DNA of 64,000 bases from a virus (IMGVR_UViG_3300044710_000077:9112-73111); one strand, 5' to 3'. Shown: positions 5,946 to 40,773, numbered from the stretch's first letter. The notes: generated by a model not told the origin, from the sequence alone. Made by a program: numbers and translations.

Positions 5946-6014
5946 CCGCGGCCTCCAATTTGCCGCGCGCCGCTGACGTGCTATCGAAAACGTGCCAACC
6001 GATGGAGAACGACA

Positions 6015-6518: not shown

Positions 6519-6519
6519 T

Positions 6520-7917: not shown

Positions 7918-8384
7918 CCGCGCGGATTGACGATTACCGCCCCAGCCAGCGAACGCTTATGCACGCGGGTCAGATAATCGACCATTTTTATTAGGATCGT
8001 TGGGTCGTGTTTGACCATGCCCAGGGTCATATTGCACCTGTTGCATAGCCATCCCCGGAATATCCCGGTTTCGTGGCAATGGTCGAAATGGAGTTGCGTC
8101 CCATTTGGCGACGTCCCGCCGCAAATTTCGCAGCCGTCAGGTCGCGGCCTGGTCGGAATCTCGGCAACAACCCCAGGCGCACATTTCGCGCGCCGCAGAA
8201 TTACGTCTGGCTTTGAACGATATATTTTGCGGGCCTCTTTAAGCCGGTCCTTGTGTTTCAGGCGATAGGTCGCCGACTTGACCCGGGCGCGCTCCCTGTT
8301 CCCGGGCTTCGCCCTGTAGATCGCCTGTTGTCTTTTGTCTCTAATCGCCTGTTCTGGCGAAAGATGCTTGCGCGGCATGGTCAA
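7914..8384 (-). CDS. Endonuclease VII-family HNH endonuclease
   Basis: CEICG...LHFDHCHETGIFRGWLCNRCNMTLG. Confidence 0.9.
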   Translation of the reverse strand: MTMPRKHLSPEQAIRDKRQQAIYRAKPGNRERARVKSATYRLKHKDRLKEARKIYRSKPDVILRRAKCAPGVVAEIPTRPRPDGCEICGGTSPNGTQLHFDHCHETGIFRGWLCNRCNMTLGMVKHDPTILIKMVDYLTRVHKRSLAGAVIVNPRG

Positions 8385-8737
8385 TGTGGGTTCACGATTA
8401 TTGCGCCGGCGATGGAGCGGCTATGTATGCGCGTGCGATGATTCCCGGAATTTGGGTCGTAGAGCGTCGCCAGGCCGTCGCCGTCGACGCTGATAATGCC
8501 GGCGACGTGCCCGGGCCAGACGGCGACCATGCCATGACCGGCCTGGGCCCGCGGGTAGCGCAGCCAGGCGCGCGCGGGGAATAATTCCGGCACCGGGTGG
8601 CCGAACACCCAGACGCTTACCCCGCAGCCGCAGAACAGCGTGCGGGGGCATCCTGACGGGTTCGGGACAACACCGTCGGCGCCAGGCGGCACAAGCGCCA
8701 TGAACGCCGACGTGATGTAGGCGACGACCTTGTCCAC
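8381..8737 (-). CDS. Small Cys/His (CHAP/NlpC-like) putative cell-wall peptidase
   Basis: FCGCG, WLRYPR, GMVAVWPGHV, DPNSG; GTG start at 8737 inferred. Confidence 0.6.
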   Translation of the reverse strand: MDKVVAYITSAFMALVPPGADGVVPNPSGCPRTLFCGCGVSVWVFGHPVPELFPARAWLRYPRAQAGHGMVAVWPGHVAGIISVDGDGLATLYDPNSGNHRTRIHSRSIAGAIIVNPH

Positions 8738-8738
8738 C

Positions 8739-9062
8739 TTACAGGCTGGCCGTGTCGCGCAGGCGGTGGATGGCGCTTTCAACCTGGTGGGGCTTTTCCG
8801 GCGCCCCGGTCGTGGCTGCGCGGTGTTCGCCTACGGTCGCGCGGATTATTCGCATGGCGCCGCGTGACTGGTCTATTTCCCGGGCATATTCGTCGGCGAT
8901 ACGGCAAGCGTTATCCAGCTTGCGGCGCAGGTTTTCGTTTTCTGCCGTGACCGACTTGTAGGCGATATCGCGGGCCTCCACCGCGGCCGTCAGTTCGGCC
9001 ACCTTGTCCTCAAGGTCTGTGACATAGCGGTGATATGAATTGCCGACGTCGTTGGCAGCCAT
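8739..9062 (-). CDS. Coiled-coil hypothetical protein
   Basis: GGAGGG RBS before ATG 9062; heptads. Confidence 0.6.
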   Translation of the reverse strand: MAANDVGNSYHRYVTDLEDKVAELTAAVEARDIAYKSVTAENENLRRKLDNACRIADEYAREIDQSRGAMRIIRATVGEHRAATTGAPEKPHQVESAIHRLRDTASL

Positions 9063-9063
9063 G

Positions 9064-9139
9064 ATTCCCTCCACGCGGCTCCAGCGCCGCCGGCCGGCAA
9101 TTTACCGGGACGGAGCACGACATGGCAAGTGGAGGGGAT
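9064..9139 (-). promoter_or_regulatory. Structured 5' leader occluding the RBS of the 9062 gene
   Basis: ccctccac (9067-9074) complementary to gtggaggg (9129-9136); inner gctcc/ggagc and ccggcaa/ttaccgg stems. Confidence 0.45.
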
Positions 9140-9346: not shown

Positions 9347-9568
9347 TCAAGGCGGGGTATTGCGGCCCCACCAGTCATAGCCGCCGAACACCGGGGCGAA
9401 TATCTGGTAAAGGATCAGGATGGCGACCAGGACGAAGATCACCTTGAGGATCGTAATAACCATGCTTGGCAGCGGGATTCCCAGCGTGGCGATCACCCAC
9501 AGGCACAGGTAAAACAACAGCGCGATGACGCAAAGGTAAATCAGCGCCCGAATGACTCGTCCGACCAT
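9347..9568 (-). CDS. Small two-TM membrane protein
   Basis: Two very hydrophobic helices separated by GIPLP. Confidence 0.65.
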   Translation of the reverse strand: MVGRVIRALIYLCVIALLFYLCLWVIATLGIPLPSMVITILKVIFVLVAILILYQIFAPVFGGYDWWGRNTPP

Positions 9569-9619
9569 GACGACACCTGAAAGGCCCAGGACAGGCCGAC
9601 GGTGCAACGCACGGGCGCT

Positions 9620-9988
9620 CTATTGGTTCCCCAGATCGTAGTGCCGGTGTCGGTCGCGCAAGCCGCCAGTGCCGCCGTTGGCGAACGTGTCCTGGGTGAT
9701 GTATCCCATGACCCGCAACAGCGGGAAAATCAGAATGCCGAACACCAGAATGCCTTGCCAGCACAGTTCGCCCCATGACGCCGGATAGTCGCCGCTTAGG
9801 CGGTCCCAGCCCAGACCGAACAGCGCCACCGACAGCAGGCAATAAATGGCCCTGCGGAAAAGTGCCCACCGGGCCATCGGCGTCCATAGCCCGGACGCGG
9901 TGGTGATTTTTAACAGCGTCCACAACATGAGAAGCGCCGCAGCAATATCCGCGACCCCCAGCACTTGCGCGCCCTGGATTGACGTCAT
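9620..9988 (-). CDS. Three-TM membrane protein (holin/antiholin candidate)
   Basis: Three hydrophobic segments; ATGA coupling to upstream holin-like gene. Confidence 0.55.
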   Translation of the reverse strand: MTSIQGAQVLGVADIAAALLMLWTLLKITTASGLWTPMARWALFRRAIYCLLSVALFGLGWDRLSGDYPASWGELCWQGILVFGILIFPLLRVMGYITQDTFANGGTGGLRDRHRHYDLGNQ

Positions 9989-10293
9989 TGGTCCTTGTCC
10001 TTCGATGGAGTTGGCGCCGCGGCCGGCACGCGCGAGCGCGCCGCCGCCACAATGCCCTGGCACACGGCCATGGCCGAAAGCCCGACGACAAAGGCGGTTC
10101 CGCCGTCGCCGAACCAGCCGCCTATGTAGTGAACTGCGGCAGGGGCTAAAAAGTTCGCCGTCAGTGTCCCGGTCAGGACGGACCCCACCACAGCCCACGG
10201 GGCGGTTTGCTTGAACACGAACGCGTGGACGACACCGCCGGCAAAGCCAGCGACCAAGCGCGACGTGTTCAGCCCCAGTTCGTCAAGCGTCAT
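9985..10293 (-). CDS. Putative holin
   Basis: 102 aa, three Gly-rich TMs (VAGFAGGVV; AFVVGLSAM), charged tail, in lysis cassette. Confidence 0.65.
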   Translation of the reverse strand: MTLDELGLNTSRLVAGFAGGVVHAFVFKQTAPWAVVGSVLTGTLTANFLAPAAVHYIGGWFGDGGTAFVVGLSAMAVCQGIVAAARSRVPAAAPTPSKDKDQ

Positions 10294-10483
10294 TGTCCCT
10301 GCCCTTTGGTTTCTCTGGAGGTTTTAGCGAATACACAGACGCCTTGACCGGCCCGCACGTCGCGCACGCGTAGTAGAGCGTCGCGGTGCCGTTGTCGGCT
10401 TCGATGTAGGACAAGCGGACGGTGTCCTTTAGGCATTTCTGGCACTTTCCCGGCGGGTTCAGCCAGAATTGGAGGGGCGCCAT
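10283..10483 (-). CDS. Zinc-ribbon protein
   Basis: CQKC...CATCG. Confidence 0.5.
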   Translation of the reverse strand: MAPLQFWLNPPGKCQKCLKDTVRLSYIEADNGTATLYYACATCGPVKASVYSLKPPEKPKGRDNDA

Positions 10484-10489
10484 GGCTAT

Positions 10490-10954
10490 TCATGGCGGCA
10501 ATGGCAGCGGCGACCCGCGGCTAAGCCCCCTGTTCTGGTCGATAATGACCAGGGCCGCCGCGATTTGCCGGTTGACGTCGTTCAGTTGATTTTGCAACAG
10601 CGTGACCCGGTCGTCGGTCGCCTTCGACACCGCCTCAAATGTCTTGGCTTCGACGGGTTCCCGCGCCGCCTTGGCTTGCGACGCCTCAAGGACAACGACA
10701 CGGCGGTCCAGATCGCCGACTCGGTTATCGACGTCAGCCCGATATCCGTTGTGTTCCCTTATGGTCAGGTACTTATCAAGCGACGCTTGCAATTCCTCGG
10801 CGCGTGCGCGGTCGGTCGCCAGTTCCTTTTCGATGTTGGCAAATTGCGTCTGAAAAATCGTCCACCCGGCAGCGCCTAGGATGGCGACCGCGCTTAGTGC
10901 GCCGACGATTGTTTGCCAAGAGAGTTCTGAGCCGCCCTTGCTGTCAGCCATCAC
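10490..10954 (-). CDS. Membrane-anchored coiled-coil protein (lysis cassette)
   Basis: N-terminal TM followed by a long coiled coil. Confidence 0.6.
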   Translation of the reverse strand: MMADSKGGSELSWQTIVGALSAVAILGAAGWTIFQTQFANIEKELATDRARAEELQASLDKYLTIREHNGYRADVDNRVGDLDRRVVVLEASQAKAAREPVEAKTFEAVSKATDDRVTLLQNQLNDVNRQIAAALVIIDQNRGLSRGSPLPLPP

Positions 10955-11651
10955 CGGGCCGCAGCGTTACAGGGACGGTCGCTGTGCCATGGATCGCAGC
11001 CACGTAATTGTCGATATGGTGGTCGCGGACCTTGACGTGCAGATTATCCAGCCAGTTGTCGTCCAGCGTAGCGTCTGGCCCGACGTGCGCCAGCGGCACG
11101 CCGTCATAGGGCCATAGCGGCACCCAGTGGAACGGCACCCGCGGCACCGGGTCGTCGCCATACCAGTACGCGCATAGCGGGATGGTTTTGACCAGATTAA
11201 CGAACGTGTCGCCGCCGACACGTGGCGGGGCGAACGCGCCTATTTTCGTCGGCGGCAAGCCAGCGTCGACTTTCAGGCGCGCGCCTATCAGCAGCGCCAA
11301 GGCAGCGCCCAGGCTATGCCCGGCCATCGCAAAGGGCGTGCCGCGCTTTTCCAGTTCGGCGACAATGCGGTTAAAAACCCGGTCGGCCGCCAGATTGAAC
11401 CCAGCGTGGATAAAGCCCAGCGACGGGTGGACAATGCCGCCCTGCTGGCGAATGCTTAGGGCGCAAAAATCGAGCGCCCACCCTAGAACGTCGTGCGTGC
11501 CCTCAATCGCCACGATAGTCGACCCGTCCGGCCGCGTGGTCAGAAACACGCGGATTGCCGAATCAAGGTCGTCGATAAATGGGATTTTGCCGCTGTACGT
11601 CGTCGCGGCAGCATCGACCAAATCAGCGTCCGAAGGTAATGCCGTTGTCAT
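10944..11651 (-). CDS. Class 3 lipase (alpha/beta hydrolase)
   Basis: VAIEGT, IHAGF, AGHSLGAALA nucleophile elbow, FAPPRVG, DPVPRVP, HHIDNY. Confidence 0.92.
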   Translation of the reverse strand: MTTALPSDADLVDAAATTYSGKIPFIDDLDSAIRVFLTTRPDGSTIVAIEGTHDVLGWALDFCALSIRQQGGIVHPSLGFIHAGFNLAADRVFNRIVAELEKRGTPFAMAGHSLGAALALLIGARLKVDAGLPPTKIGAFAPPRVGGDTFVNLVKTIPLCAYWYGDDPVPRVPFHWVPLWPYDGVPLAHVGPDATLDDNWLDNLHVKVRDHHIDNYVAAIHGTATVPVTLRPGDG

Positions 11652-11720
11652 CCCCGTGGCCCCGTCTAAGGAATCGCAGGGCCCGTGCGGCAAATCACGG
11701 GCCCCTTGGCCGCCTGTGGA

Positions 11721-12530
11721 TTATAGACCGAACTCGTAGCTGAGTCGTGTCCAGTATTGCGTCCCGAGATTGGCACCAGCGCCGAATGTAAGCGGGGCGC
11801 CGTTGGTGGCAAAAGCGTTGCCAATCGTAAAACCCTTGACGGGGAATGCGATACCGGCCGACGCGTCAATCGCACCGCCATTGGGCTTGCCGTCGGTGCC
11901 CAGAGTCGGCCAGATAAAGCCGCCAGTAACCATCGGGTAAACGCCGACGGACGTCCCTTGCGCGGCCCCGAAAGTGCCAGTCAATCCCGCTTCCTTCAAA
12001 CCGACGCCGATATATTGGCGTGGCGTGCCAACAGGTATGGTCGGCGTGATCGGCGTGAGGGTGGGGAATAGATTGGCATTCGTCAGCGTAGGAAGGGCCG
12101 CCAGAACGCGCTGTAGCCACTCAATGCCGATATCGGCTTCCTGCGTCGCGGACCAGCGGCTGGCGATTGACGCACTGGCGGCGCTTGTGGTGGCCGTGGA
12201 ACCCACCGTATTGGTGCCGGAAATATTCGCCCATTCGCCCGTCAGCTTGAAACGATACCAGCCGATTGCGCCGTTGCCGATGTAACCGACCTCGCCGCCG
12301 ACGGAACCGCCCGTCGCCGTCAGATTGCCGCTGGCCAGGCTGGTCGCAAAAGCATTCGTGCCGCTGACGCTCGATTGAGCAACGTCGGCCTCCGTAAGGA
12401 TGCCGACGAACCAGCTACCAGACACATATGGAACCGGCGGCACAGTCGCCTTGACCGGCATGTCGGCGGCGAAAGCGGCGGGCGTAAAAGCCGCGGCTGC
12501 CAGAAGGGCTGCGATTCGTAATATGCGCAT
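11721..12530 (-). CDS. Outer-membrane beta-barrel protein, rhizobial Omp25/RopB-like
   Basis: Signal peptide ending AFA-ADMPVKA, amphipathic beta strands, C-terminal RLSYEF. Confidence 0.75.
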   Translation of the reverse strand: MRILRIAALLAAAAFTPAAFAADMPVKATVPPVPYVSGSWFVGILTEADVAQSSVSGTNAFATSLASGNLTATGGSVGGEVGYIGNGAIGWYRFKLTGEWANISGTNTVGSTATTSAASASIASRWSATQEADIGIEWLQRVLAALPTLTNANLFPTLTPITPTIPVGTPRQYIGVGLKEAGLTGTFGAAQGTSVGVYPMVTGGFIWPTLGTDGKPNGGAIDASAGIAFPVKGFTIGNAFATNGAPLTFGAGANLGTQYWTRLSYEFGL

Positions 12531-12612
12531 AACAGGGACTCCGTGCGTTGATTGAATTCACGCCAGAACCCTTACTCCAAGTCGCCGTGTCTTTGGCGCC
12601 ACAGCGACCGAA

Positions 12613-13044
12613 TTATTTCTTGGGGGAGCCGTCCGCGTTGTAAGCGTCCGCCAGCGGGACCTTCGGCGTGAAATATGCAGAGGCCGCGGCCTCGATTTTC
12701 GCCAGCGCCGACCGCCCCGTGGCGCCCAGCAGCAGCGCGTATTCCTCGTTGAGCCAGTTCGCCGGGTCCAGGTTCAGTTGCTTGGCCATGTCCGTCGGCA
12801 GCATGCCGTAATGGTTCAGCGCGATGACGGCCGCGCCGCTGGCGAGCGCGATGTATGTTTTATAACCCTGAATCGCATTTGGCAGCGCGGACAGGCTGAA
12901 CGTCGGGATGGTTATTTGGGTGGACACGGGCGACTCCTTCGGTTGGCTTTTGACGACGTGGCTTTCCGGCGCTGGCGCGGCAGGCGCATGCGGGCTGTCG
13001 CCCGGGTCGGCGCGATACGGCGGGAAGCTGTAGTCGTCCGACAC
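12613..13044 (-). CDS. Holin-like membrane protein downstream of endolysin
   Basis: IQGYKTYIALASG TM start, LLGATGRSALAK. Confidence 0.45.
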   Translation of the reverse strand: MSDDYSFPPYRADPGDSPHAPAAPAPESHVVKSQPKESPVSTQITIPTFSLSALPNAIQGYKTYIALASGAAVIALNHYGMLPTDMAKQLNLDPANWLNEEYALLLGATGRSALAKIEAAASAYFTPKVPLADAYNADGSPKK

Positions 13045-13061
13045 ACCACAAACCCCGCGAA

Positions 13062-13925
13062 TCAGGCTGCGGGCAATTTAGCCGTAATTTTCGCCCAGGT
13101 CTCGGGACCTGCCAAGCCATCAACCGTAAGGCCGTTCGCTTGCTGGAATGCCCGAACGGCCGCCATCGTTCGGCGGCCCAGGTTGCCGTCCACGACCAGC
13201 GGGGGTTTGCACCCCAGCTTGTTCAGCGCAGCCTGTAGCGCGGCAGCGTCGTGCAAGCCCACCGGCAGCGGCTTCGCCGTCACGACCGGCACGGTGGTCG
13301 CCTGCTGGGTCGGGTTCGCCGTCGGGAATGACCATTCCCGGTGAACAGCCAGCACCGCCTGAATGACCGGCCAAATGCCGGGCTGGACGTCGACCGCGGT
13401 GCCCGACCATTCGTTGTCGGCTATGTATTTGCCGCCCAGGCCAACGCCGCCATAGCGGGGCGTGTCGTAAACCGCCGTGCACGAAAACAGGTAGCCCGGG
13501 ACTCGCTCGTGGGCGTTCGGCCCAAAGCCATTCCAGCCGTTGCCCTCAAAGCAAAGCCATTCCGCGGTCCAGGCCGACGGGGACGTGATGGCGTTGATAT
13601 GCTCGCGCGCCAGGTAGAACCGGCACGCGTCGGCCCATGACTTGAACGGGCCGAACCCAGCCGGCACGTGCACCGACCGCTCGTTCCATGGGTCACCCTG
13701 CCCTAGCGCGGCCCGTGGGTTGCAGTTCGACTCCCGCAGGTCCAGAGCGCCGATGAAGGCCGCGCACTGGGGCGGCATGCCCAGGGCCGCCGCAGCGTCG
13801 ATATAGCGGGGCATCGCCGCTAGCACCGCCTTGGCGCCTTCCTGCACCGGGCCCGGCCGCGTCACGCGGGCGTGGGCTATCCAGTTCGTATATTCGGGCG
13901 ACAGGGTGGCGAAGGGGTGCTGCAT
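13062..13925 (-). CDS. Endolysin: lysozyme-like N-terminal domain plus C-terminal peptidoglycan-binding domain
   Basis: LRESNC..LGQGDP..VHVPAG.GPF, KYIAD, QPG; LQAALN..LVVDG.LG..T..AVRAFQ..NGLTVDGLAGPETW. Confidence 0.9.
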   Translation of the reverse strand: MQHPFATLSPEYTNWIAHARVTRPGPVQEGAKAVLAAMPRYIDAAAALGMPPQCAAFIGALDLRESNCNPRAALGQGDPWNERSVHVPAGFGPFKSWADACRFYLAREHINAITSPSAWTAEWLCFEGNGWNGFGPNAHERVPGYLFSCTAVYDTPRYGGVGLGGKYIADNEWSGTAVDVQPGIWPVIQAVLAVHREWSFPTANPTQQATTVPVVTAKPLPVGLHDAAALQAALNKLGCKPPLVVDGNLGRRTMAAVRAFQQANGLTVDGLAGPETWAKITAKLPAA

Positions 13926-13936
13926 GGCAACGACTC

Positions 13937-14371
13937 CTAGTTTTTGGCTGGCGGCATCAGCAGGTCGTAAGCCTGGGTGATGACAGATGGATTCAAACGC
14001 ATTTTCGAAATCTGGTCCTTAATCAAGTCGATATCGCGCGGGTCCAGGTCCACCGTCCATTTGCCGGTTATGGTGAGCGCTTTGCGGATTTTTCTCGCCA
14101 GCGATCCGCGGATGACAATATCGGCTGGCTTTAGCCCCTGCTCGGGCTGGTCGACGGCACCGGCCGCGAGCCGGCCCAGCGTCAGCGTAACGTATCGGTC
14201 GCATTTGCCGTAGTCCGGGCTTTTAACGTCATCGACAACGTGGTCGCAATCCTGCTGGGCTCTGCCGTCGGGCGCCATAAGGACGGCCGACATATCGACC
14301 TCAGTGGCGCGGGCAGACGTGACAGCCGTAAGGATGAGCGCGGCGGCGGCGGTGACAAGGGCAATTTTCAT
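13937..14371 (-). CDS. Putative tail-fibre chaperone-like protein with Sec signal peptide
   Basis: GGAG RBS; MKIALVTAAAALILTAVTSARA signal; LTLG..A...RG.LA.KI..DL...DI.LIK..I.K...QAY.LL; directly downstream of fibre gene. Confidence 0.6.
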   Translation of the reverse strand: MKIALVTAAAALILTAVTSARATEVDMSAVLMAPDGRAQQDCDHVVDDVKSPDYGKCDRYVTLTLGRLAAGAVDQPEQGLKPADIVIRGSLARKIRKALTITGKWTVDLDPRDIDLIKDQISKMRLNPSVITQAYDLLMPPAKN

Positions 14372-14449
14372 GGCGAATTCTCCGTTGGTTGGCAGCGCGT
14401 TATTTATCCGCGCGTCAGCCGCGTCCGTCAAGCCTAGCGCGCTAACTCG

Positions 14450-17400
14450 TTACGCAGCCTTGGAGATCCAAGACGGCAAATTGTCGTTCGCTGGCAGGTC
14501 GCCCGACTCCAGGCTGGCCGTGCTGCCGCATATCCAGGTGATCGTATCGCCGCCGAGCGCCGTTCCAGTGATCGTCAGTTGAGTCGTGGTCGCGCTGACC
14601 GTGAGCGACGCTATCGCCGTTCCGGAGGCGGCATTGCAACTCGGCGCGCTGCCCCAGGTCGAACCAAAGTTGATGACGCAAGAGGTCGCGACGGTTCCGG
14701 CGACGACCTTGCCGAAGTTGTCGCCGCCAGAGATCGTCGGCGTTCCGGTGCCGCAGGCGGAGATCGTCGGCGCGGTGCCGCTCGCCAGGATATGCCCTGT
14801 CGGCCCGATGGAGGCGACTTGCGAGCCGCCGTTCTGAAAGATCGCGATTGGCACCGTGCTCTGCCCTGCATTATCGGCGATCAGTGCCGCGGAGACGCTG
14901 GGGATCGTGGTCTGGCCCAGCGTGGCCCAGACGCCAATTTCTACCGGCGACGTGCCGGTGTTGATGCCCATGCCCATGACGCCGACGTTGACGCCGGAGT
15001 TCTTGGCCGTGTTCGCGATGCCTGACGTTCCGATGTTCACATTGGCATTCGTGGCCCTACCGGTGACGCCGAAGTTATAGCCGGCCGTCGTTGCATTCGC
15101 GGTGTATATGCCGGCCGTGTTGCCGCTCTGGGTGCCTGAACTTGCTAGCGCCCCCGCCGTTCCGGCATTGCTGTTGGCGACGTTGAGGCCGTTCGTATTC
15201 GACGATCCGGTATATCCGGCAGCGTAAGTAATGCCGATGGCTGTGTTGACCTGCGAGGCCGTGCCGGCACCAGTGATGGTCCAGACTACCGCAGTTTGTT
15301 GCGCAACTGGAGAAGCTGGCTGCGTTGCCGTCAAGGTAAGAACTTGGGCGCCGGCCGCCAGCGTGCCGCCGACGATGGTCTCGGAGAGCAGGTTGGCGAG
15401 CCCGGTGCTGCTGTATGTCGAGCCGTCCGCGAAGATCACCGAGCCGCTGTAGGTGCAGCCGGTCAGCGCGCAGTCTAGGGAGGCGTGTCCGGTCAGGCTG
15501 GCAGTGATCGTGCCCGCGGAGAAGTTGCCGCTGCCGTCGCGCTCGACGAGCGTCGAGGCGGTGTTGGCGTTCGTGTAGGCCAGGAAACTGCCGGCACCGG
15601 CGGCGCTTAACGACAGCAGGACGTTGCCGGCGCTCGACGTGCCGGCGTAGGCCGTCGGGACGGCCCCGTTGCCGGCGGACAGCATCAGATTGCCGGAGGC
15701 CGGGTACTGTACCGCGAGCGAACCCGCCGTGGCCTTGATTGTCGTGTTGTCGGGTTCCGAGCAGCCGATCTGCGTGGCCGTCGCCACCGTGCACTTGATC
15801 GTGACGGCTCCTGTCCACGGCCCGCTCCCGGTGCCGGTGATGGTCAGCGTGCTGTCGGCGGAGTAGTTGCCGAGCGAGGCGACGTCCCCGGCCGCGCCGC
15901 AGGAACCCCAAGCGGGCAGGCCGCCGGAGACGATGAGGCACTGATTCGTCGAGCCGATGGCGAGCCGCGTGATGACGTTGCTGGACCCGCCGTTCGTGTA
16001 GATGTCACCCTTGGCGTCGGAGCCGAAGGCCGCCGTCACGCTGCCGAGACTGTTCGTTGATGACGTAATTGTCTTGTTGGTCAGCGTCTGAGCCAGCGAG
16101 TCGCCGACGAAGTTGTAGGTACCACTCGGAATCGTGGCCGTGCCCGCCGCACTCGCGGCGTTCTGGATCGTCATCGCGTTCGCGGTTGGGCTGGCGAGAA
16201 CGACCTGCCCCTGCGTGGCCCCGGCCACGCCGATCTCGACCTCGGACGTTCCGCTGCCGATGTTGCGAAGAACGATCAGGCTGGCCCGGATGCCGATGGC
16301 GTCGCCGGACGGCGAACCGCTCAGCGTGCTGTAAATGTTGAGAGTACCGCCCGCGGAAGATTCCGACCCCGAGAGCGCGGGAGCGATCAAATTCCCGCTG
16401 GCGTCTACCTCGACATTTGTCACGCCGTTGACTTGGAACAAAGCCACGGGGCTGCTGGTCGTGCCGTTGTCGAAGACGCCGGCCGCGCTGACCCCCGGCA
16501 CCGTCGTCTGGTTGAGCGATGCGAAGATGCCGATGTTGTTGTTCGCACCGATCGCCGACGCCAAGAGGCCCACGTTGAGATGGTTGCTCGCCCCGACCTG
16601 CGCCTTGAAGGCGCCGCCGACGTTGATCGCCCCGCCGGCCGCGAAGGAATCGATGCCGAAGTTATAGCCCGCGGTCGTGCCCAGCGCGGCGACGGCCATC
16701 CCCATGTTGCCGCAGCTATTCCCGGTGCCGGCTGCGGGAACGAGGACGGCGCAAGTCCCGGCGTTGAGGTTGTCGATGTCGAGCGCGATGCTGCGCTTGT
16801 TGCCGGTGTAGCCGGCGTTGTAGGTGATGAGCACAGCGTCATTGACCTGCGACGCAGTGCCAGCGCCGGTGATGTTGAAATTGACGGCGACCTGCTTGGC
16901 GGTCGGGGACAGCGCATTCGTCGCGTTCACCGTCAGCGCCGACATGCCGGCGGCGAGCTGCGTCGCGGCGTTGACGTACAAGGTGCCCGGGCCGTTGTCG
17001 AGGCTGTAGGGCGGCGCCGTGACTGAGTAAGTCCCGATCAGGATGCCGCCGTCGTTCCAGACCGTGAACTGCGGCGCCTGGGTCGTAGTGTTGTTCACCG
17101 TCGTGAAGATGCGGGCCTCGGTGCCGTAGGAGGAGGCGCTCCACGCGACGTTGCTGGACCATATTTGAAAGCTGCCGCGGCTCTCTACCCATCCAGGGCC
17201 GCCGGCCACGCACGTCGCGCAGTACACGCCGCCGCCGCCGAACGAGACGATGTTGTTGTTCGCGACGATCGGGAGCGGGGATGCCAGCGTGCCGTTGAGG
17301 TACTCACCGGTGAAGGCCGTCGAGTTGCCGGCGCCGCCCACGTTTCCGTTCGTGGTGTTGCTCCCCAAGAAGATGCTGACTCGCGCTCCACCACCGTCCA

Positions 17401-17980
17401 GGCCGGCAAGGGCCAGAACGTTGTCGCCGAACGGCGTCGGCACAATAGCGTTAAGACTCACGATCGGAGCCGTCGTAAAGACTTGCTGCCCGGTCCAGGT
17501 GTTCGGGTTGGCTAGGTTGAGTCCCAGATTATTGCTGCCGTCCAGCGCAAGCGTCGCGTTGTAATTCAGCGAAATGGTAGCCAGCGGCGGGACAAAGACG
17601 ACCGAAAGCGGCACATTGACCGCCAGCGACGCGGACGACACCACGGGCGCGAATTGACCCGTGCTGGTGTTGAACGTGCCGATTTCGCCCCAGCCGCCTG
17701 GATAGGATTTATACCAGACGGCCGGATTGCTGCCGGTCACCAGGCAGTCGGTGCCGGTCAGTGTCGTGGCTGGGCAGCCGCCCAGCGACGCCGACGCGTG
17801 CATGCCCAAAATGCCGTTGACGTCGGACGCGGCCGCTAGAAAATTGGCCCGCATGGGCGCCGATTGCAGCGGCGCGTTCGCTGCCGGAATCGATGTATTT
17901 ATCGTCGACTGGGCGAACGCCTGGCCGGTCGCGAAGGCGAGCCCCAGGATGACCGCAAGCCGCTTTAATGCGTTCCGCAT
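14450..17980 (-). CDS. Large G/T/S/A/N-rich tail-fibre/adhesin-like protein with N-terminal signal peptide
   Basis: 1176 aa beta-rich; fibre-type motifs (LANPNTWTGQQVF, QTLTNKTI, TLVERDGSGNFSAG); MRNALKRLAVILGLAFATGQAFA signal. Confidence 0.75.
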   Translation of the reverse strand: MRNALKRLAVILGLAFATGQAFAQSTINTSIPAANAPLQSAPMRANFLAAASDVNGILGMHASASLGGCPATTLTGTDCLVTGSNPAVWYKSYPGGWGEIGTFNTSTGQFAPVVSSASLAVNVPLSVVFVPPLATISLNYNATLALDGSNNLGLNLANPNTWTGQQVFTTAPIVSLNAIVPTPFGDNVLALAGLDGGGARVSIFLGSNTTNGNVGGAGNSTAFTGEYLNGTLASPLPIVANNNIVSFGGGGVYCATCVAGGPGWVESRGSFQIWSSNVAWSASSYGTEARIFTTVNNTTTQAPQFTVWNDGGILIGTYSVTAPPYSLDNGPGTLYVNAATQLAAGMSALTVNATNALSPTAKQVAVNFNITGAGTASQVNDAVLITYNAGYTGNKRSIALDIDNLNAGTCAVLVPAAGTGNSCGNMGMAVAALGTTAGYNFGIDSFAAGGAINVGGAFKAQVGASNHLNVGLLASAIGANNNIGIFASLNQTTVPGVSAAGVFDNGTTSSPVALFQVNGVTNVEVDASGNLIAPALSGSESSAGGTLNIYSTLSGSPSGDAIGIRASLIVLRNIGSGTSEVEIGVAGATQGQVVLASPTANAMTIQNAASAAGTATIPSGTYNFVGDSLAQTLTNKTITSSTNSLGSVTAAFGSDAKGDIYTNGGSSNVITRLAIGSTNQCLIVSGGLPAWGSCGAAGDVASLGNYSADSTLTITGTGSGPWTGAVTIKCTVATATQIGCSEPDNTTIKATAGSLAVQYPASGNLMLSAGNGAVPTAYAGTSSAGNVLLSLSAAGAGSFLAYTNANTASTLVERDGSGNFSAGTITASLTGHASLDCALTGCTYSGSVIFADGSTYSSTGLANLLSETIVGGTLAAGAQVLTLTATQPASPVAQQTAVVWTITGAGTASQVNTAIGITYAAGYTGSSNTNGLNVANSNAGTAGALASSGTQSGNTAGIYTANATTAGYNFGVTGRATNANVNIGTSGIANTAKNSGVNVGVMGMGINTGTSPVEIGVWATLGQTTIPSVSAALIADNAGQSTVPIAIFQNGGSQVASIGPTGHILASGTAPTISACGTGTPTISGGDNFGKVVAGTVATSCVINFGSTWGSAPSCNAASGTAIASLTVSATTTQLTITGTALGGDTITWICGSTASLESGDLPANDNLPSWISKAA

Positions 17981-17995
17981 GGCGCGCGTCCCCCG

Positions 17996-20389
17996 TCAGA
18001 ACAGCCGCCGGCGGAAATCGCGCCAGCCTATGGTCGAAATTGTCACCGCGCCGGCCGCGCTGTTGGCGATTGCCACCTGTTTAGCCGTATTAGTGGCCAC
18101 CCTGGCGGTTGTTGCCGAACTTGCCGTGTTTCCGCCAGACGTCAGCGACGCGGTTTCCGCGGTCGGTTGTGTCGTCCCAGGCGTATAAATCCACGTATTG
18201 CACTGGGAACTGGCGCCCACCAAAATAAAGACGCTCATAATGGCTTCGACGGCGACGCCGTTGGGCACGCTTAGGGCGAAATTCGCATTTGGCGACCCGA
18301 CCGCACTTAGGTCGGTCGGCGGCGCGGTCCATAGGAATTCGTCGCCGTATTGGGTGAACAGAATAATATTACCGCTGCTGTTCGTCAGCACCGACCCCAG
18401 GCATTGCTTGACGTTGTAGCCGCTGGGCAGCGTCGGCGTCGGGTACGACTGGCTGAACAGCACGTCGAAGCCGCTGGCGAGTGCCGTGGGCGCAGCCGCC
18501 TGGGACGTGATATTTGAACCTGGATTGCTGTAATTGAACGTGTTGGTGGTGACGGCCGTCGCCACCTGCAAGCCGTCCAGCCCCTGGCCGCAACCCAGCA
18601 CGCGCACAGTGCTGCCGATGCCCAAATTGTGCCCGGCCACCGTCAACGACGCCACGTTCGACGTGCGCTGGACATTGGTGACCGCCATGCCCGTTCTGCC
18701 GATAGCGTAGGCGTGCCAAGTCTGATTGTTGCCCTTGGTCGACGTGTCGCAGGCGCCGTTGCCGGTGCCAGGCGCCCAGGATTGGTCCAGGCGCTTGGTC
18801 ATGGCGGCGGCCAATTGCATCAAGGTCACGTCGCTATCATCGCTGACGCGGCCGACATTGATATCGACCACGAAAGTCGGGCTGGTGCCGTCGTTCGCCA
18901 GCGTCAGGTTGCCGCCGCCTTGGCTGCTAACGGGCGCCACATATGCTCGCTGCCGCGACGCCGACGCGTCCAGCATGGCAGGCGTCACGGTGCCGGCCAA
19001 AATCGTGAGGTTGCCGGCCCCGTCGTCGCCCAGCGTCAGCCCGTTCTTTATGGTCAGATTGCCGCCGACGTTTTGCAGCCACTGGCCGATTCCCAGCGTG
19101 GCGAGCGCGCCTAAGGTGTTGGCTTGCAGCAGCCACACCGACCCCGTGTAAATGAACGACAGGAAGGACCCGGCCGTCAGTTCGCCGCCCGATAGCGGCA
19201 CGTTGCTGCCGCCGCTGACCTTGTTAATCGCGATGACGCCTGTGGTGTCGACGTTCAGCGTGGCGGCGCCGGTATTATTCAGCCCCGCGCCAACAGTCGT
19301 GGTTACGACATACCCAGGGGTCAGCGAAAACCCGGACGGGGTCGTGGACGAAATAACCTGGGCGTTCGCCGTGCCGGTTGTGGTCACGCCAGCGAACTGG
19401 CTGCTGGTCGACCCCACCACCGCGGTCCAGACCGCCGTGCTGGCCGTGCCGGTGACCGTGCAGACATAGAGGATTTTATTGACGGTATCGAAAGCGAAAT
19501 CGGACGCGCCGTTCACGGACGCATTGCCGGCCACAGACCCGTTCGGGTTGCCGGCCGACGGCTTCATGATCGGGATACCGCCGACCGTATCCGACGCCGG
19601 CAGGTTGGCCAGCGGCAGCGTCCCCTGGACCTCGGACCCAAGTTTGATTTGCGGCGCTTGGCCGGCGGTGCCGCTGTGGTGCGAAAACAGCAGGCCCGCC
19701 AGGAATGGTGCGGCCGGGTAATTGGACGGCACCCCGGTTCCGACCGATGGCCCAGCGACCTTGATATTTCCGCTGGTAATCTGGGTCTGGCCGAACGTCA
19801 GGTCGATAAGATACAGCGGCACTTGCCCGCTGGCTGGCGTGGGCGGGACCTCAGACCCCGTCGTGGCCGGGCTGCCGTACACCACGGAAATCGTGCAGAT
19901 AGCCGAGCGCTCGGTGTTGTTCGCCGCACCGGTATTGCCCGGGCCCTGGAACGGCTGGGTGGGGTTGGCCGAATTCCAGTAGTACAGCACGCCGTTCGTC
20001 GGGTCGCCGGCGCGGATGATATCCGACTGAGAAAATGCCGCCTGGATAAGCGCCCATTGACTCTGCCCGGCCGACAGCGCCGACGTGGTCAGGGCGACGG
20101 CTTGGGCGACCGCAAAGCCCTGCTGCATGACGAGCGTCGGGTCGGCGGCCAGCGCGCCCCATGTGGTCGCGTCCAGGGCGGACTGCTGGTAGATTCGGCC
20201 GGCCGTCAGATTAATATTCAGCGTGGCCGGGCTGGTCGGCGTCGCCGCCAAGCCGCTGACGACCGACGTGGTGCCACCGGCTAAATCCTGCTGCAAAAAG
20301 GCGGCGGCGTAAAAGGCGTCCTTGACCGCCCACAATTGGTCGAAGCTGCGGACCTGCTCTTGCGAGTAAAGGATGACTCTGTTGCCCAT
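17996..20389 (-). CDS. Tail fibre protein (baseplate-attached)
   Basis: 797 aa, VSGLAATPTSPATL N-terminal attachment-type region, GNPNGSVAG motif, after baseplate genes. Confidence 0.8.
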   Translation of the reverse strand: MGNRVILYSQEQVRSFDQLWAVKDAFYAAAFLQQDLAGGTTSVVSGLAATPTSPATLNINLTAGRIYQQSALDATTWGALAADPTLVMQQGFAVAQAVALTTSALSAGQSQWALIQAAFSQSDIIRAGDPTNGVLYYWNSANPTQPFQGPGNTGAANNTERSAICTISVVYGSPATTGSEVPPTPASGQVPLYLIDLTFGQTQITSGNIKVAGPSVGTGVPSNYPAAPFLAGLLFSHHSGTAGQAPQIKLGSEVQGTLPLANLPASDTVGGIPIMKPSAGNPNGSVAGNASVNGASDFAFDTVNKILYVCTVTGTASTAVWTAVVGSTSSQFAGVTTTGTANAQVISSTTPSGFSLTPGYVVTTTVGAGLNNTGAATLNVDTTGVIAINKVSGGSNVPLSGGELTAGSFLSFIYTGSVWLLQANTLGALATLGIGQWLQNVGGNLTIKNGLTLGDDGAGNLTILAGTVTPAMLDASASRQRAYVAPVSSQGGGNLTLANDGTSPTFVVDINVGRVSDDSDVTLMQLAAAMTKRLDQSWAPGTGNGACDTSTKGNNQTWHAYAIGRTGMAVTNVQRTSNVASLTVAGHNLGIGSTVRVLGCGQGLDGLQVATAVTTNTFNYSNPGSNITSQAAAPTALASGFDVLFSQSYPTPTLPSGYNVKQCLGSVLTNSSGNIILFTQYGDEFLWTAPPTDLSAVGSPNANFALSVPNGVAVEAIMSVFILVGASSQCNTWIYTPGTTQPTAETASLTSGGNTASSATTARVATNTAKQVAIANSAAGAVTISTIGWRDFRRRLF

Positions 20390-20402
20390 TGGGCGACCCC
20401 CG

Positions 20403-21020
20403 TTAAAGTAACATGCCGCGTTGCTGGCGGAAAACGATAGGGTCCTTACCCCCCTTACTCAGGTTACATGGCACGCAAAGTAATTGAATATTATCAATGC
20501 TGTTAGCGCCGCCAGCGACCAGTGGCACTACATGGTCGATATGGTATTTGGCGCCCAGTCGAGAAAAGCAGACCGCGCATTTACCGCGCTGTTTTTCATA
20601 CAAATTGGAAATCTGCGCATCCGTAAAGTGGTCACCGGATTTTTCGCGAACGCGGCGCCTGTGCTTATAGGCACGAATTTTATCTGGATTCTGCGCTGCG
20701 AATTTACGGTGACCGGCGCGTTCCACGACTATCACTCTGTCGTGGTTTCTAGCACGCCATAAACGCCTTACCGCCAAATGCTTGCCGGACGCACGATGTT
20801 TTTTTATTGCTGCGCGAATAATATCTGGGTGCGCTGCCTGCCAAGCGCGAACGCTCGCAGTATGTTTCTCGATATTTTCCGCGCGCCAACGACGCGTAGC
20901 AGCGTTGTGGCAGTCCTTGCAACGGCGGTAAAGGCCATCCTTTGTCTTGGGGGCAGCATAATAGGAATCGACCGACAGGAGCCGCCGACAAGTGCAGCAA
21001 ATTTTCGTTTGCAGCGGCAT
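20403..21020 (-). CDS. HNH endonuclease with N-terminal zinc finger
   Basis: CCTC...DGL..RCKDC; CAVC..HIDHVVPL..GGANSIDNIQLLCVPCNLSKG; lower GC. Confidence 0.92.
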   Translation of the reverse strand: MPLQTKICCTCRRLLSVDSYYAAPKTKDGLYRRCKDCHNAATRRWRAENIEKHTASVRAWQAAHPDIIRAAIKKHRASGKHLAVRRLWRARNHDRVIVVERAGHRKFAAQNPDKIRAYKHRRRVREKSGDHFTDAQISNLYEKQRGKCAVCFSRLGAKYHIDHVVPLVAGGANSIDNIQLLCVPCNLSKGGKDPIVFRQQRGMLL

Positions 21021-21063
21021 TTCTGTGCCCCGATTCATGCCTACGTTTACTCCGCTCTCTAAG

Positions 21064-21867
21064 TTATGTCCATGTGACACCCGAGGTATCCCAGTGCAGG
21101 CCGCTCTGGTCCCAATACACCGCGCCCTGCGGCGCGACGAACTGCACCCAGGCAATCGTACCCTCGCATTTGGCTCGATTGATCGCGTTGTAAATGGCCT
21201 GTTCGCCCAGCGGCGTGGCGCCGCTTGCGGCGTCCAACATGGACGACCCGGCGACGTCCAGATTCATCGTGTATTCGTCGAAAACCGGCGTCGGATTATT
21301 GCCGAACGGTTGCGCCAGCGGCAAAATGGTTTGAATAAAGCCCTGATAGCCAAGGCCGTTGTCCGTCATGAGGCCCGGCGTGACCACGTTGTCGATATCG
21401 TAAAACATCATCCCGGCGCCGGGCGCGCCGTCCAGCACGCCGGTATCCGACGGCCGCCACGGCTCGATAATCCGCGGCGCTTGGCCGGTGACCGCCTTGA
21501 CGGCGTTCGATACGGCTTGACGGGTCGCGCCACTTGGCAATAGCGCCGCCAGCACGCGCGCCGAATAAGCGGCATCCGATTCGCCCGAGTTGCGCGGCAG
21601 CGCGTAGAATCCGGTGCCGAAATAGTCGACCGCCTTGCCGTCCAGCGCGCCGTTTGTCGCGGTGCCGATTAGCGTGGCGTCGAAGGCGAATTGCAGAGCG
21701 CCCATTTCAAAATTCAGCGGGATACCCAACGTATCCATAACGGCGCGCACCGCGCCGCCTTCCTGCAATGCATCTGGGCTGGCCCACCTATGGGGGTAAA
21801 GAGCCGCCATCCGCGCGCCGAATTGCTGGGGAGTCAATAGCGTGAAAGTGGTAGGGGGAGTTCCCAA
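21064..21867 (-). CDS. Baseplate wedge subunit (partner of J)
   Basis: IGTATNGALD...DYFG...LPRNSGESDAAYSARV; GGAGG before TTG start. Confidence 0.75.
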   Translation of the reverse strand: MGTPPTTFTLLTPQQFGARMAALYPHRWASPDALQEGGAVRAVMDTLGIPLNFEMGALQFAFDATLIGTATNGALDGKAVDYFGTGFYALPRNSGESDAAYSARVLAALLPSGATRQAVSNAVKAVTGQAPRIIEPWRPSDTGVLDGAPGAGMMFYDIDNVVTPGLMTDNGLGYQGFIQTILPLAQPFGNNPTPVFDEYTMNLDVAGSSMLDAASGATPLGEQAIYNAINRAKCEGTIAWVQFVAPQGAVYWDQSGLHWDTSGVTWT

Positions 21868-21956
21868 GATCAGGCCTCCATGTTACAGAAACGGACCGGG
21901 CGAGCGCTGCGAACGCTCAAGCCCGGCCCTAACCAAGACGACAGGTCGGTGCCGAA

Positions 21957-22511
21957 ATGGCTGACGATAAAATCCCAGAAAAACAGCGCGGGCGCAAGTT
22001 TCCGCGCAACGACCTGACGGCGCACTACGTCCGTTCGATTCTGGACTACAATCTGCTGTCTGGCGATTTGCGATGGCGATGGCGCGCCGATTGCCCGGCC
22101 AAATGGAACATTACATTTGCGGGAAAAATTGCCGGCACGCTCAACCCGGACGGATATCGCCGAGTATGCATTAACTACCATATTTACTTGGCCCATCGGT
22201 TGATTTGGCTGATTATGACTGGCCGCTGGCCAGAACCGGAAGTCGACCATAAAAACACGAAACGGGACGACAATCGCTGGGATAATCTGCGCCAAGCAAC
22301 AGTGGCACAAAATACGAATAATACTGGTCTTAGAAGCACAAACATTTCTGGCTTCAAGGGAGTTTATCTGCATCAAGGCCGCTGGGTCGCCCAAATTAGC
22401 AGCGGTGGCAAGCAACGTTATCTTGGGGGTTTTGACACGCCGCAAGAGGCCCATCGCGCGTATTGCGAAGCTGCCGACAAATTTCACGGGGAATTTGCCA
22501 ATCATGGCTAA
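21957..22511 (+). CDS. HNH-AP2 homing endonuclease, inverted within the baseplate operon
   Basis: YLAHRLIW, EVDHKN..RDDNRWDNLR, SGFKGV..WVAQI..YLGGFDTPQEAHRAY..HGEFA. Confidence 0.93.
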   Translation: MADDKIPEKQRGRKFPRNDLTAHYVRSILDYNLLSGDLRWRWRADCPAKWNITFAGKIAGTLNPDGYRRVCINYHIYLAHRLIWLIMTGRWPEPEVDHKNTKRDDNRWDNLRQATVAQNTNNTGLRSTNISGFKGVYLHQGRWVAQISSGGKQRYLGGFDTPQEAHRAYCEAADKFHGEFANHG

Positions 22512-23683
22512 TAGTTGCTGATCGTTATGTTGCTGGTCGTCGTGATGCTGCGCTGAAAAAGCGTGCCGACCAAATCAGCGGCGGCAGCATTAATCGTCGT
22601 GGCCCCAGGTTGAACTGCGATCACGCCCGGCACCGTCAGCGCCGCTGCTTCGACCTGCGATATATAGACGAGAATTCCGTCCTCATCTTCGCCGCCGATA
22701 GGCTGACTATTGACCGCCGCCGCCACGGCCGCCGCCACGGCCGCATTGACGACCGACGGCACAATCGGCAGCGACGGCGTGCTGGGCGCCAGCCGCACGA
22801 CCAGCACAATGGTCGCGGTGACCGTCGTCACGGCGATGGTTTCGGCCAAGATCGTGAAACCCCGGACCTGTTCCAGCGCGTTCTGCACGGCCTGGATAAG
22901 CGACGCTGGCGGATTGCCCGACCCGTCGTCAATGGTGGCGACGAATTCGCCCGGCCGCGGCGCGCCGCCTGTGGTGACGTTTTCCTGCAAGGAATACAGC
23001 AGCCCCTGCTGCACGCCCTGGATGGCGGCCACGATGGCGCCATAGGTCGCCTTCGACAGCGAATTTATATATTGCACGAACCGGGCGAGGTACGCCGTGT
23101 CGGACTCGGCGTTGAGCCCGTTATTGATCGCGGCCCCGTTCGTCACGTAGCCGATGCCCGGCACATTCGTCGCAAGCTGGCTCAGTTGCCCGGCGGTCAC
23201 GTTCGACGTGGCGCCCGGCGTTGCCGCTTGGATTGTCGCCGTAAGGCTGCTCTGGCCGGTCGCCAGCACGTAGGCGCCCACCGTCGCGTTCCAGGTCGGC
23301 TGCGTCGGGTCGGCTACGGTCAAATATTGGATGGCGCCGCCGGCGGTCTGCACGGTCACCCCGGGCGGCACTTGGATAGGGGACGCGGCGGGCGTGAATG
23401 TGCCAAACGTCTCTGATCCGGTCGCCGACGTGGCGCCCAGCCGCGGGAAATTGAATTGCGCCATCCATTCGTCGAGGTCCGCGCCGGTGCGCGTGCTGGC
23501 CAGGGTAAGCGCGTTGACGATTTGGATTTGGGCTTGCAGGAACACGGCCTGCGCCGCCACGGTCTGCATAAGCGCCAGCAGCGGGTCGCCGTCGGGAAGT
23601 GTGGGCTGGTAGCCTAATTGCTGCGCCCAGCCGGCCACGAGATCGGCGGTAAATTGCGATATCGACTTTGACGGAAGCGCCAT
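22508..23683 (-). CDS. Baseplate J-like protein
   Basis: TGADLDEW..F.FPRLGAT.ATG, G..SNV.AG, VTN..AI.NG.NAESD.AY..RF. Confidence 0.9.
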   Translation of the reverse strand: MALPSKSISQFTADLVAGWAQQLGYQPTLPDGDPLLALMQTVAAQAVFLQAQIQIVNALTLASTRTGADLDEWMAQFNFPRLGATSATGSETFGTFTPAASPIQVPPGVTVQTAGGAIQYLTVADPTQPTWNATVGAYVLATGQSSLTATIQAATPGATSNVTAGQLSQLATNVPGIGYVTNGAAINNGLNAESDTAYLARFVQYINSLSKATYGAIVAAIQGVQQGLLYSLQENVTTGGAPRPGEFVATIDDGSGNPPASLIQAVQNALEQVRGFTILAETIAVTTVTATIVLVVRLAPSTPSLPIVPSVVNAAVAAAVAAAVNSQPIGGEDEDGILVYISQVEAAALTVPGVIAVQPGATTINAAAADLVGTLFQRSITTTSNITISNY

Positions 23684-40754: not shown

Positions 40755-40773
40755 GGCGCACCTTGATAGCACG

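Follow-up and report, generated by a model that had tools for sequence, protein, structure and literature searches.

Textbook tailed-phage assembly is wholly cytoplasmic, and ordinary tail fibres fold in the cytoplasm and have no signal peptide. What, then, is the fate of a fibre-like protein that begins with an apparent secretion signal and is encoded in the late tail module of a complete phage? This question is raised by a 64,000-nucleotide (nt) stretch of viral DNA, hereafter the window, which covers bases 9112-73111 of the 73,111-bp IMG/VR virus record IMGVR_UViG_3300044710_000077, rated complete by CheckV. The gene under study encodes a protein of 1176 amino acids (aa), P0001, and is followed by the gene of a 144-aa protein, referred to here as the partner. 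That both proteins carry genuine cleavable Sec-type signals is strongly supported by sequence comparison, and a course of late expression, Sec export, cleavage after the motif AFA and oxidative folding beside an exported companion appears well supported on the same grounds. The fate that would follow is proposed with less confidence: tentatively, the exported, periplasm-matured fibre would arm phage particles late, after holin action or lysis.

The N-terminus of P0001, MRNALKRLAVILGLAFATGQAFA followed by QSTINT, has the n/h/AxA pattern, with MRNALKR as the n-region, LAVILGLAFA as the h-region and TGQ-AFA before the first mature Gln (…GQAFA, then QSTINT). The partner starts at an ATG at position 14371, with GGAG 8 nt upstream, and begins MKIALVTAAAALILTAVTSARA followed by TEVD; its signal divides into MK, the h-region IALVTAAAALILTAV and TS-ARA before the Thr. 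The listed 164-aa open reading frame (ORF) with a TTG start is an over-extension of this gene, whose real start is the ATG with its ribosome-binding site. A first, sequence-only reading of the locus had taken both N-termini for n/h/AxA signals and had seen none on the upstream 797-aa fibre, P0003; translation bears out both statements, the 797-aa fibre having no hydrophobic N-terminus. The twin-arginine consensus (S/T-R-R-x-F-L-K) is found in neither P0001 nor the partner. In a rough scan of all ORFs of the record, only three real genes had classical signals, namely these two and a 269-aa gene at 11721-12530.

The simplest objection is that such hydrophobic N-termini reflect wrong starts, or uncleaved membrane tethers that leave the protein on the cytoplasmic side. 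The ATG of P0001 is preceded by GGGGGA at a distance of 8 nt, and 15 nt separate it from the stop codon that ends the 797-aa gene, which makes an upstream start impossible. No ATG, GTG or TTG occurs in frame ahead of codon 43, and residues 24-42 are conserved and must be coding. These two facts rule against a true start downstream of the hydrophobic segment, a possibility that the sequence-only reading had raised.

The same objection can be addressed with the family to which P0001 belongs. The family query was the mature N-terminal domain (N-domain) only, residues 24-130, which was compared by phmmer with 1.84 billion representative proteins; since the signal was omitted from the query, it could not bias the matches. 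At E<=1e-3 the family comprised 177 protein clusters (clustering at 50% identity) and at E<=1e-10 it comprised 76. The family statistics refer to the 150 members listed among the 177 clusters, and a local re-alignment matched 151. Signals were called by a strict heuristic of our own together with conservation across the family. The best conserved stretch of the family is the mature start, [QGA]-S-T-[IV]-[ND]-[PT]-x-x-P-A, and the residue equivalent to Gln24 stands at position 19-38 in nearly all listed members.

Signal conservation among homologues, a survey that the earlier reading had proposed, proved high: the strict rule was passed exactly at the conserved junction in 127 of 148 members, with Ala at -1 in 123 and at -3 in 104, and the partner had a signal, judged by eye, in 16 of 16 sequences. 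At +1, 126 of 145 members have Gln, Gly or Ala and only 2 have Cys, so the junction is not of the lipobox type. The pre-sequences diverge between members yet always keep a start with Lys or Arg, a hydrophobic core and a small-x-small end. Divergent segments that end at one conserved residue are the pattern produced by selection for export and cleavage. Most failures of the rule are sites off by one residue. On the side of the objection are the heuristic nature of the calls, three members with pre-sequences of 8-9 residues, which have the look of truncated starts, and P0147, which is truly without a signal. Charge, hydrophobic core and AxA are nevertheless kept at one conserved end residue in 127 of 148 members despite the divergence, and a cytoplasmic location would not be expected to produce the cysteine pattern described next, which is missing from control fibres. 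Wrong starts or cytoplasmic-side tethers are accordingly regarded as highly improbable.

P0001 contains 16 Cys, all of which fall into eight near-neighbour pairs (69/79, 254/257, 410/423, 681/694, 730/740, 837/842, 1076/1101 and 1115/1151). Cys parity was counted in family members with a mature part of >=350 aa (n=139). The count is even in 135 of these, zero in none, and has a median of 8 (binomial p 2e-35). As a control, all complete and distinct fibre ORFs were taken at 86 IMG/VR loci whose only common feature with P0004, the closest full-length relative of P0001, is the central motif (n=33). Five of these 33 fibres have no Cys and 13 of the other 28 have an even number (p 0.71), with a median of 2. 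Pairs are also gained and lost as units: the N-domain pair Cys69/Cys79 is present in 59 of 150 members, absent in 81 and half-present in 10, and is hence concordant in 140 of 150, while comparison of P0001 with P0004 shows the pairs 254/257, 410/423 and 837/842 kept together and the pairs 681/694 and 730/740 lost together. The even-Cys bias relative to controls and the joint gain and loss of pairs argue for disulfide formation after export, so that oxidation of the P0001 family outside the cytoplasm, as periplasmic disulfides, is well supported as a prediction. The sequence-only reading had noted that the scattered Cys of the fibre and the Cys pair of the partner (QQDCD...GKCD) would fit disulfides; the former suggestion is strengthened by the parity counts and the eight pairs, and the latter by the invariance of both partner Cys in 16 of 16 sequences.

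Among the fibres that share just the central motif, eight start with signal-like segments of their own that are unrelated to those above (L007, L009, L010, L026, L033, L047, L065 and L069, in ORFs around position 10000). Six of these eight control fibres are Cys-rich (6-15 Cys), and the two with Bacteroidota-style signals, L033 and L065, have 3 and 1. Other families of signal-bearing fibres therefore probably exist beyond the N-domain family.

Apart from its signal, P0001 looks like a fibre. The protein is rich in Ala, Gly, Thr, Ser and Asn, and its internal repeat modules A and B are 43% identical across 196 aa (residues 300-560 compared with 561-1176 by BLASTP; E 6e-36); by eye, the module of ~195 aa recurs several times in the 2052-aa homologue P0006. 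The equivalent of the central motif in P0004 had 93 matching stretches in IMG/VR, and IMG/VR scans with P0001, P0004 and P0007 returned only fibres sharing central motifs. P0004 is 67% identical to P0001 over 81%, with a different N-domain and a retained signal-like start, and the same kind of start is found in all 8 other full-length P0001 homologues, P0004 included. Among homologues, a Peptidase_S74 domain is found in P0005 and P0006 and DUF5907 in P0012 and P0016. At their C-termini the family members differ extremely, a hypervariability also seen in receptor-binding proteins, and a distant N-domain member, P0145, matches annotated tail fibres of cultured phages. P0001 itself has no match in Pfam, PHROG, NCBIfam or the PDB sequences. 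Gene position and spacing, internal repeat and composition, shared central motif and homologue domains, and the distant N-domain match together suggest that P0001 is a tail-fibre-type, that is receptor-binding-type, protein of the late tail module, the relation to known fibres being weak but consistent.

The N-domain is new to the reference collections. Pfam, PHROGs and NCBIfam contain no model of it, its profile matched none of the PDB sequences, and protein-atlas look-ups of the N-domain and of the partner returned only unnamed viral clusters at ~0.9, which are leads at best. Its closest relative is the N-domain of P0012, at 72% identity. In cultured phages, blastn of window positions 13001-21000 gave no match, tblastn of P0001 gave one match of 6%, and neither the N-domain of the window nor that of L005 had a match. 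Metagenome scans for related loci gave nothing in the first and three short loci in the second. P0001 thus appears to be the founding member of a large unannotated family, defined by a signal peptide, a [QGA]STINP domain and a variable fibre, with at least 177 clusters at 50% identity.

Where does the gene sit in related phages? Six related loci are readable with their context and represent four independent lineages: L002 (an Acidobacteriaceae metagenome-assembled genome), L003, the single lineage L004-L006, and L099. In all six, the gene lies within or directly after a myophage baseplate and fibre module. In L004-L006, the exported-fibre gene starts 10 nt past baseplate J, ahead of the phrog_26379 gene and a signal-less fibre, and in L002, L003 and L099 it comes after a phrog_11303 fibre protein. 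It was considered whether the proteins of this phrog that precede the exported fibre in L002 and L099 (193-194 aa) are tip-less stubs; this was rejected, as they are near the usual length (profile 231) and have a small C-terminal domain of their own. The gene is predicted to be late-expressed and co-transcribed with the tail module. Because it is packed inside a late tail operon, with gaps of 10-15 nt, expression as an adhesin of the lysogen seems unlikely. The exported fibre showed no similarity to the co-encoded signal-less fibre in 3 of 3 phages, P0001 and the 797-aa P0003 included, and this absence rules against the exported protein being a decoy copy of its neighbour.

The partner was described by the sequence-only reading as chaperone-like. 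In addition to the signal and the invariant Cys42/Cys57 pair, its 15 homologues share a well conserved mature part that includes both Cys (QQDCDH...CDK), and its AlphaFold2 model is compact alpha/beta with a mean predicted local distance difference test (pLDDT) of 86. The partner has no match in the family libraries (Pfam, PHROG and NCBIfam) and its fold none in the PDB at E<=0.001; BFVD returned two viral matches without names. The homologues P0163 and P0165 are encoded on contigs of 67,372 and 70,534 bp, equal in bp to those bearing P0007 and P0005, and probably lie on these same contigs. The P0005 fibre ends in an S74 domain by Pfam; P0007 has no Pfam match and a C-terminus that resembles that of P0004 by eye, and apart from the N-domain and a few motifs neither has much in common with P0001. 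In the independent phage L099, a 51%-identical partner gene directly follows a 468-aa signal-bearing N-domain fibre with another tip. Partners of 51-78% identity thus stand beside fibres with unrelated C-termini.

The conserved adjacency in L099 upholds a partnership between the 144-aa protein and the fibre. The chaperone-like label is not supported: the protein has neither a family match nor a PDB fold, and it is conserved next to unrelated tips, some of which probably have their own S74 intramolecular chaperone. Conservation beside different tips points to a companion and not to a tip chaperone, and the partner is best described, as far as its distribution indicates, as the companion of such fibres in one lineage. 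It was not found in L002, L003, L005, L006 or the record of a Bradyrhizobium phage discussed below, three of which are 33-66% complete. Small genes directly downstream of a fibre gene are typical of Tfa/gp38-type tail fibre assembly chaperones, and the partner shares this position; it differs in its signal peptide, its disulfide, the lack of family similarity and its retention next to different tips, and assignment to this type was rejected for want of a family match and of co-variation with the fibre tip. A spanin, suggested by the adjoining endolysin gene, was likewise rejected, as the partner has an AxA site and no lipobox, a compact alpha/beta model, and no endolysin-like gene beside it in L099. 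Complex prediction of the mature N-domain (24-130) with the mature partner scored 0.01, a value for which controls were not run and which speaks neither for nor against contact.

Other exported neighbours occur in related loci. Signal-bearing proteins unrelated to the partner directly follow the exported fibre at L093:3882-4619 (+), 245 aa, and L004:3267-4436 (+), 389 aa. In L099, a 120-kb IMG/VR record, positions 5165-9094 (+) of the tail module hold four signal-bearing genes in a row, for a 451-aa protein, the 468-aa fibre, the homologue of the partner and a His-rich protein of 209 aa (KTHHHHYHYHH...), with an endolysin-like gene next.

How could an exported fibre serve a particle that is built in the cytoplasm? 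In the proposed mechanism, P0001 would be a late product of the tail operon, the phage being a complete 73-kb myophage, and would be sent through the host Sec pathway, signal peptidase I cutting the 23-residue signal after AFA to leave QSTINT.... The protein would then fold in the periplasm, where its eight Cys pairs would be oxidised, and the 144-aa companion, with its one conserved disulfide, would be exported too and work with P0001 there. As an accessory receptor-binding fibre, P0001 would meet the cytoplasmically built particle only after holin opening of the inner membrane or lysis, and would dock on it through the conserved N-domain. After holin action, particles and periplasmic fibres would share one confined space, and the virion would gain a disulfide-stabilised fibre that the reducing cytoplasm cannot make. 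A C-terminal tail resembling an ssrA tag, described below, would serve to destroy copies that fail export. A more general form of this idea is possible but doubtful: arming in two compartments, with a first, cytoplasmic fibre and a second, Sec-exported one that has helpers and docks after holin action, a degron clearing cytoplasmic copies, as a new strategy widespread in soil phages.

The strongest alternative is that the exported fibre never joins the virion. The N-domain might instead hold it at the envelope or surface of the infected cell, in analogy to the mosaic adhesive trimer (MAT) fibres of Bdellovibrio bacteriovorus, which are surface-located and whose N-domain has been suggested to attach to an element of the cell surface (Caulton et al. 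2024, PMC10769870, available text). Late in infection, such a fibre might tether the infected cell to neighbouring hosts, or cover surface structures and so keep progeny or superinfecting phages from being wasted on the cell and its debris. According to the available text of PMC10769870, MAT fibres have, like the P0001 family, a signal, a beta-rich, conserved domain spanning ~130 aa next to it, a long chimeric fibre, swappable tips and a subset with an S74 chaperone-protease; this shared architecture is the main attraction of the alternative. Both families are phage-tail-fibre-like, and the likeness between them is one of architecture only; MAT entries in the PDB are C-terminal fragments. The differences are that MAT fibres are encoded by a predatory bacterium and stand on its own surface, whereas the P0001 genes lie in late tail operons of complete phages, and that the P0001 family is Cys-rich while the word disulfide has 0 occurrences in the available text of the MAT paper.

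Two observations fit attachment to the envelope at least as well as late arming and weigh against the latter. Phages whose baseplate sets differ, and distantly a siphophage, have the N-domain in conserved form, so it could bind a cellular element and not the baseplate. The slot of the gene in the tail module is also variable, behind the fibre in the window and in L002, L003 and L099 but between baseplate J and the phrog_26379 gene in L004-L006, a placement in keeping with an accessory role and not with a core structural one. The four consecutive signal-bearing genes of L099 suggest a small periplasmic system, and the unrelated signal-bearing proteins after the fibre in L093 and L004 point the same way. 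Against late arming, furthermore, attachment after lysis would have dilution to compete with, no docking partner was identified for the predicted virion fate, and the N-domain model of AlphaFold2 (8-row alignment) reached a pLDDT of only 62. The signal-bearing state of the family is a prediction from our heuristic and from conservation, and the tail is ssrA-like by resemblance only. Four long members have an odd Cys count. Lastly, gp52 of Pelagibacter phage HTVC111P, an annotated fibre with a distantly related N-domain from residue 1 and no signal, is also even (12 Cys), so that parity is meaningful only over many proteins and has no meaning for a single one.

Anchoring at the envelope has difficulties of its own. 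A route across the outer membrane is not evident, and the family is not accompanied by the outer-membrane-protein-like neighbour gene (0 of 5 records). In 3 of 3 phages the tips show no relation to the virion fibre encoded alongside, which leaves masking of that fibre's receptor unsupported, and it is to virion tail fibres that the N-domain is distantly related. Envelope action is considered possible, if somewhat unlikely. Computation decides neither way, and late arming is favoured, with envelope action as its main rival, because all features of P0001 except the signal are fibre-like, its distant relatives are virion fibres and it is unrelated to the co-encoded fibre.

A further alternative is a fibre or spike that is set free at lysis and binds or degrades the surface polysaccharide of neighbouring cells, or soaks up binders, and thereby aids the spread of progeny. 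Disulfides would suit an extracellular life, and P0012 has weak matches to DUF5907 and to the catalytic domain of the endosialidase tail spike (E 7e-5, which falls short of the Pfam cut-off). In P0001, however, family libraries and the PDB search revealed no recognisable enzyme domain, a secretion signal would be superfluous on a soluble factor that lysis releases anyway, except for the sake of oxidation, and the conserved N-domain is left without a role. This explanation is judged improbable.

The C-terminus of P0001 has a 13-residue tail, ANDNLPSWISKAA, with an ANDN start and an Ala-Ala end. This is the general format of alphaproteobacterial ssrA tags, some 12-14 residues with (A)ANDN first and Ala-Ala last. 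Similar appended tails (ANDNWPLGLSRAA, DNDNTPAFLNQAA and others) occur in 6 of 152 family proteins, which besides P0001 are P0011, P0017, P0032, P0081 and P0129, and several of them directly extend a C-terminus at which other members stop. Among 3327 frames of >=100 aa in the window and all loci, the tail of P0001 is the only non-S74 case. It fits the format of the Caulobacter ssrA tag printed in PMC1233412. Capture of a piece of a transfer-messenger RNA (tmRNA) gene was rejected as its origin: neither the window nor the gene end gave a match with ARAGORN or Rfam, and the record as a whole contains no alpha_tmRNA. The tail may be a built-in degron that clears copies left unexported, or it may give a periplasmic C-terminal protease its handle, an idea that is offered for testing.

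The sequence-only reading had also suggested a possible link of the fibre to a neighbouring gene for a putative outer-membrane beta-barrel. This 269-aa protein begins with the signal MRILRIAALLAAAAFTPAAFA, followed by ADMP, and has no family match even at E<=10. The link is not supported: homologues are absent from the 5 other records with such fibres (three of them 33-66% complete), and none were found in plasmids. The protein may be an outer-membrane protein carried by the phage.

Exported phage proteins are familiar in other settings. Lambda Lom and Bor and T5 Llp are phage-encoded exported envelope proteins, Lom and Bor being expressed in the lysogen; some such proteins are encoded among tail genes, and some protect progeny at the envelope. 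The minor coat protein g3p of filamentous phages is a receptor-binding virion protein with a Sec signal and periplasmic disulfides. It differs from P0001, to which it has no sequence relation, in that filamentous phages are assembled at the membrane and extruded whereas tailed phages are assembled in the cytoplasm and released by lysis. Signal-arrest-release (SAR) endolysins are phage proteins that use the host Sec pathway (PMC3765740, available text). Lom, Bor, Llp and the signal and SAR endolysins are small, not fibre-like and not hypervariable, unlike P0001. Ordinary tail fibres share with P0001 a conserved N-terminus, hypervariable distal parts, a baseplate neighbourhood and central motifs. 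No description of Sec signals on tailed-phage fibres was found in the literature, in a search that left most subscription journals outside, so that an earlier mention is possible.

Among the cultured phages searched, the N-domain was found only in a distant case from Bradyrhizobium phage ppBdUSDA122-1 (OP596612). Its annotated tail fibre WAX24263.1 has a signal-like start, MKLQRLLGAIGAVVMSVSTALA followed by AEQ, a distant N-domain and 18 Cys in 9 neighbour pairs; the literature search found no paper on it and no mention of this signal. The phage differs from that of the window in having a non-contractile tail tip module like that of lambda and gene transfer agents, and its N-domain lacks the STINP start. 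As a cultured, non-pathogenic system with a fibre of the same features, ppBdUSDA122-1 makes the question directly testable. If such fibres join virions, the periplasm would be a second assembly compartment and the timing of lysis would be tied to virion maturation; if not, phages would deploy MAT-like adhesive fibres at the envelope of the infected cell, and either outcome would be new. Host-range prediction and the engineering of receptor-binding proteins assume cytoplasmic folding, and fibres of this kind would need periplasmic expression and DsbA for their active form.

The phage of the window is contractile-tailed, a myophage, as PHROG and Pfam scans identified terminase, portal, major head protein, tail sheath, tape measure and baseplate J on the minus strand, and replication genes lie at the ends of the record. 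The late module runs in the order baseplate J, phrog_26379 protein, HNH endonuclease, 797-aa fibre, 1176-aa gene and 144-aa gene, and is followed by the lysis region. One DNA dataset is listed with this phage, a soil metagenome that may be the record's own source, and RNA datasets with it are not listed.

Table. Positions of the exported fibre gene, its parts and its neighbours in the window
Feature	Position	Strand	Basis or remark
Baseplate J	22508-23683	-	PHROG/Pfam; upstream in the same late module (20403..23683)
phrog_26379 protein	21064-21867	-	PHROG/Pfam
HNH endonuclease	20403-21155	-	PHROG/Pfam
797-aa fibre, P0003	17996-20389	-	Translation; 6 Cys; without signal peptide
1176-aa fibre-like protein gene, P0001	14450-17980	-	ORF, ribosome-binding site, 15-nt gap, homologues P0004-P0011
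P0001 signal peptide, residues 1-23 (MRNALKRLAVILGLAFATGQAFA)	17912-17980	-	Predicted signal peptidase I cut after AFA; junction kept across the family
P0001 conserved mature N-domain, residues 24-130, starting QSTINT, with Cys69/Cys79 pair	17591-17911	-	phmmer family
P0001 internal repeat module A, residues 342-533	16382-16957	-	BLASTP
P0001 central fibre motif, residues 628-694 (...TLTNKT...)	15899-16099	-	tblastn match in phage record MW202444
P0001 internal repeat module B, residues 874-1066	14783-15361	-	BLASTP
P0001 C-terminal 13-residue tail (ANDNLPSWISKAA), ssrA-tag-like	14453-14491	-	Translation
144-aa exported partner gene	13937-14371	-	Ribosome-binding site, homologues, alignment
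Partner signal peptide, residues 1-22	14306-14371	-	Read from sequence
Endolysin-like protein, C-terminal PG_binding_1, N-terminal domain without assignment	13062-13925	-	Lysis region
143-aa protein, one hydrophobic segment	12613-13044	-	Lysis region
269-aa protein, signal MRILRIAALLAAAAFTPAAFA, then ADMP (cut after AFA); no Cys	11721-12530	-	Translation; 'OM beta-barrel' (outer membrane) of the sequence-only reading
Class-3 lipase/esterase	10944-11693	-	Lysis region
154-aa i-spanin-looking protein (N-terminal membrane segment and coiled coil)	10490-10954	-	Lysis region
Holin-like protein, phrog_2359	9985-10293	-	Lysis region (region spans 9347-13925)

A 131-aa ORF at 60619-61014 (-), which has no family match and may not be a real gene, contains MNRRAFLSGLL, which has the look of a Tat signal. 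Genes of the HNH or endonuclease VII type are strewn through the structural module, at 7914-8384 (-), 20403-21155 (-), 21957-22511 (+), 39870-40790 (-), 43213-43812 (-) and 46090-46491 (-). The 211-aa minus-strand ORF at 21870-22505 was rejected as spurious, since it lies opposite an HNH endonuclease gene. One opposite-strand HNH gene stands between baseplate J and the phrog_26379 gene, where the G+C content is lower (0.595 at 20-22 kb).

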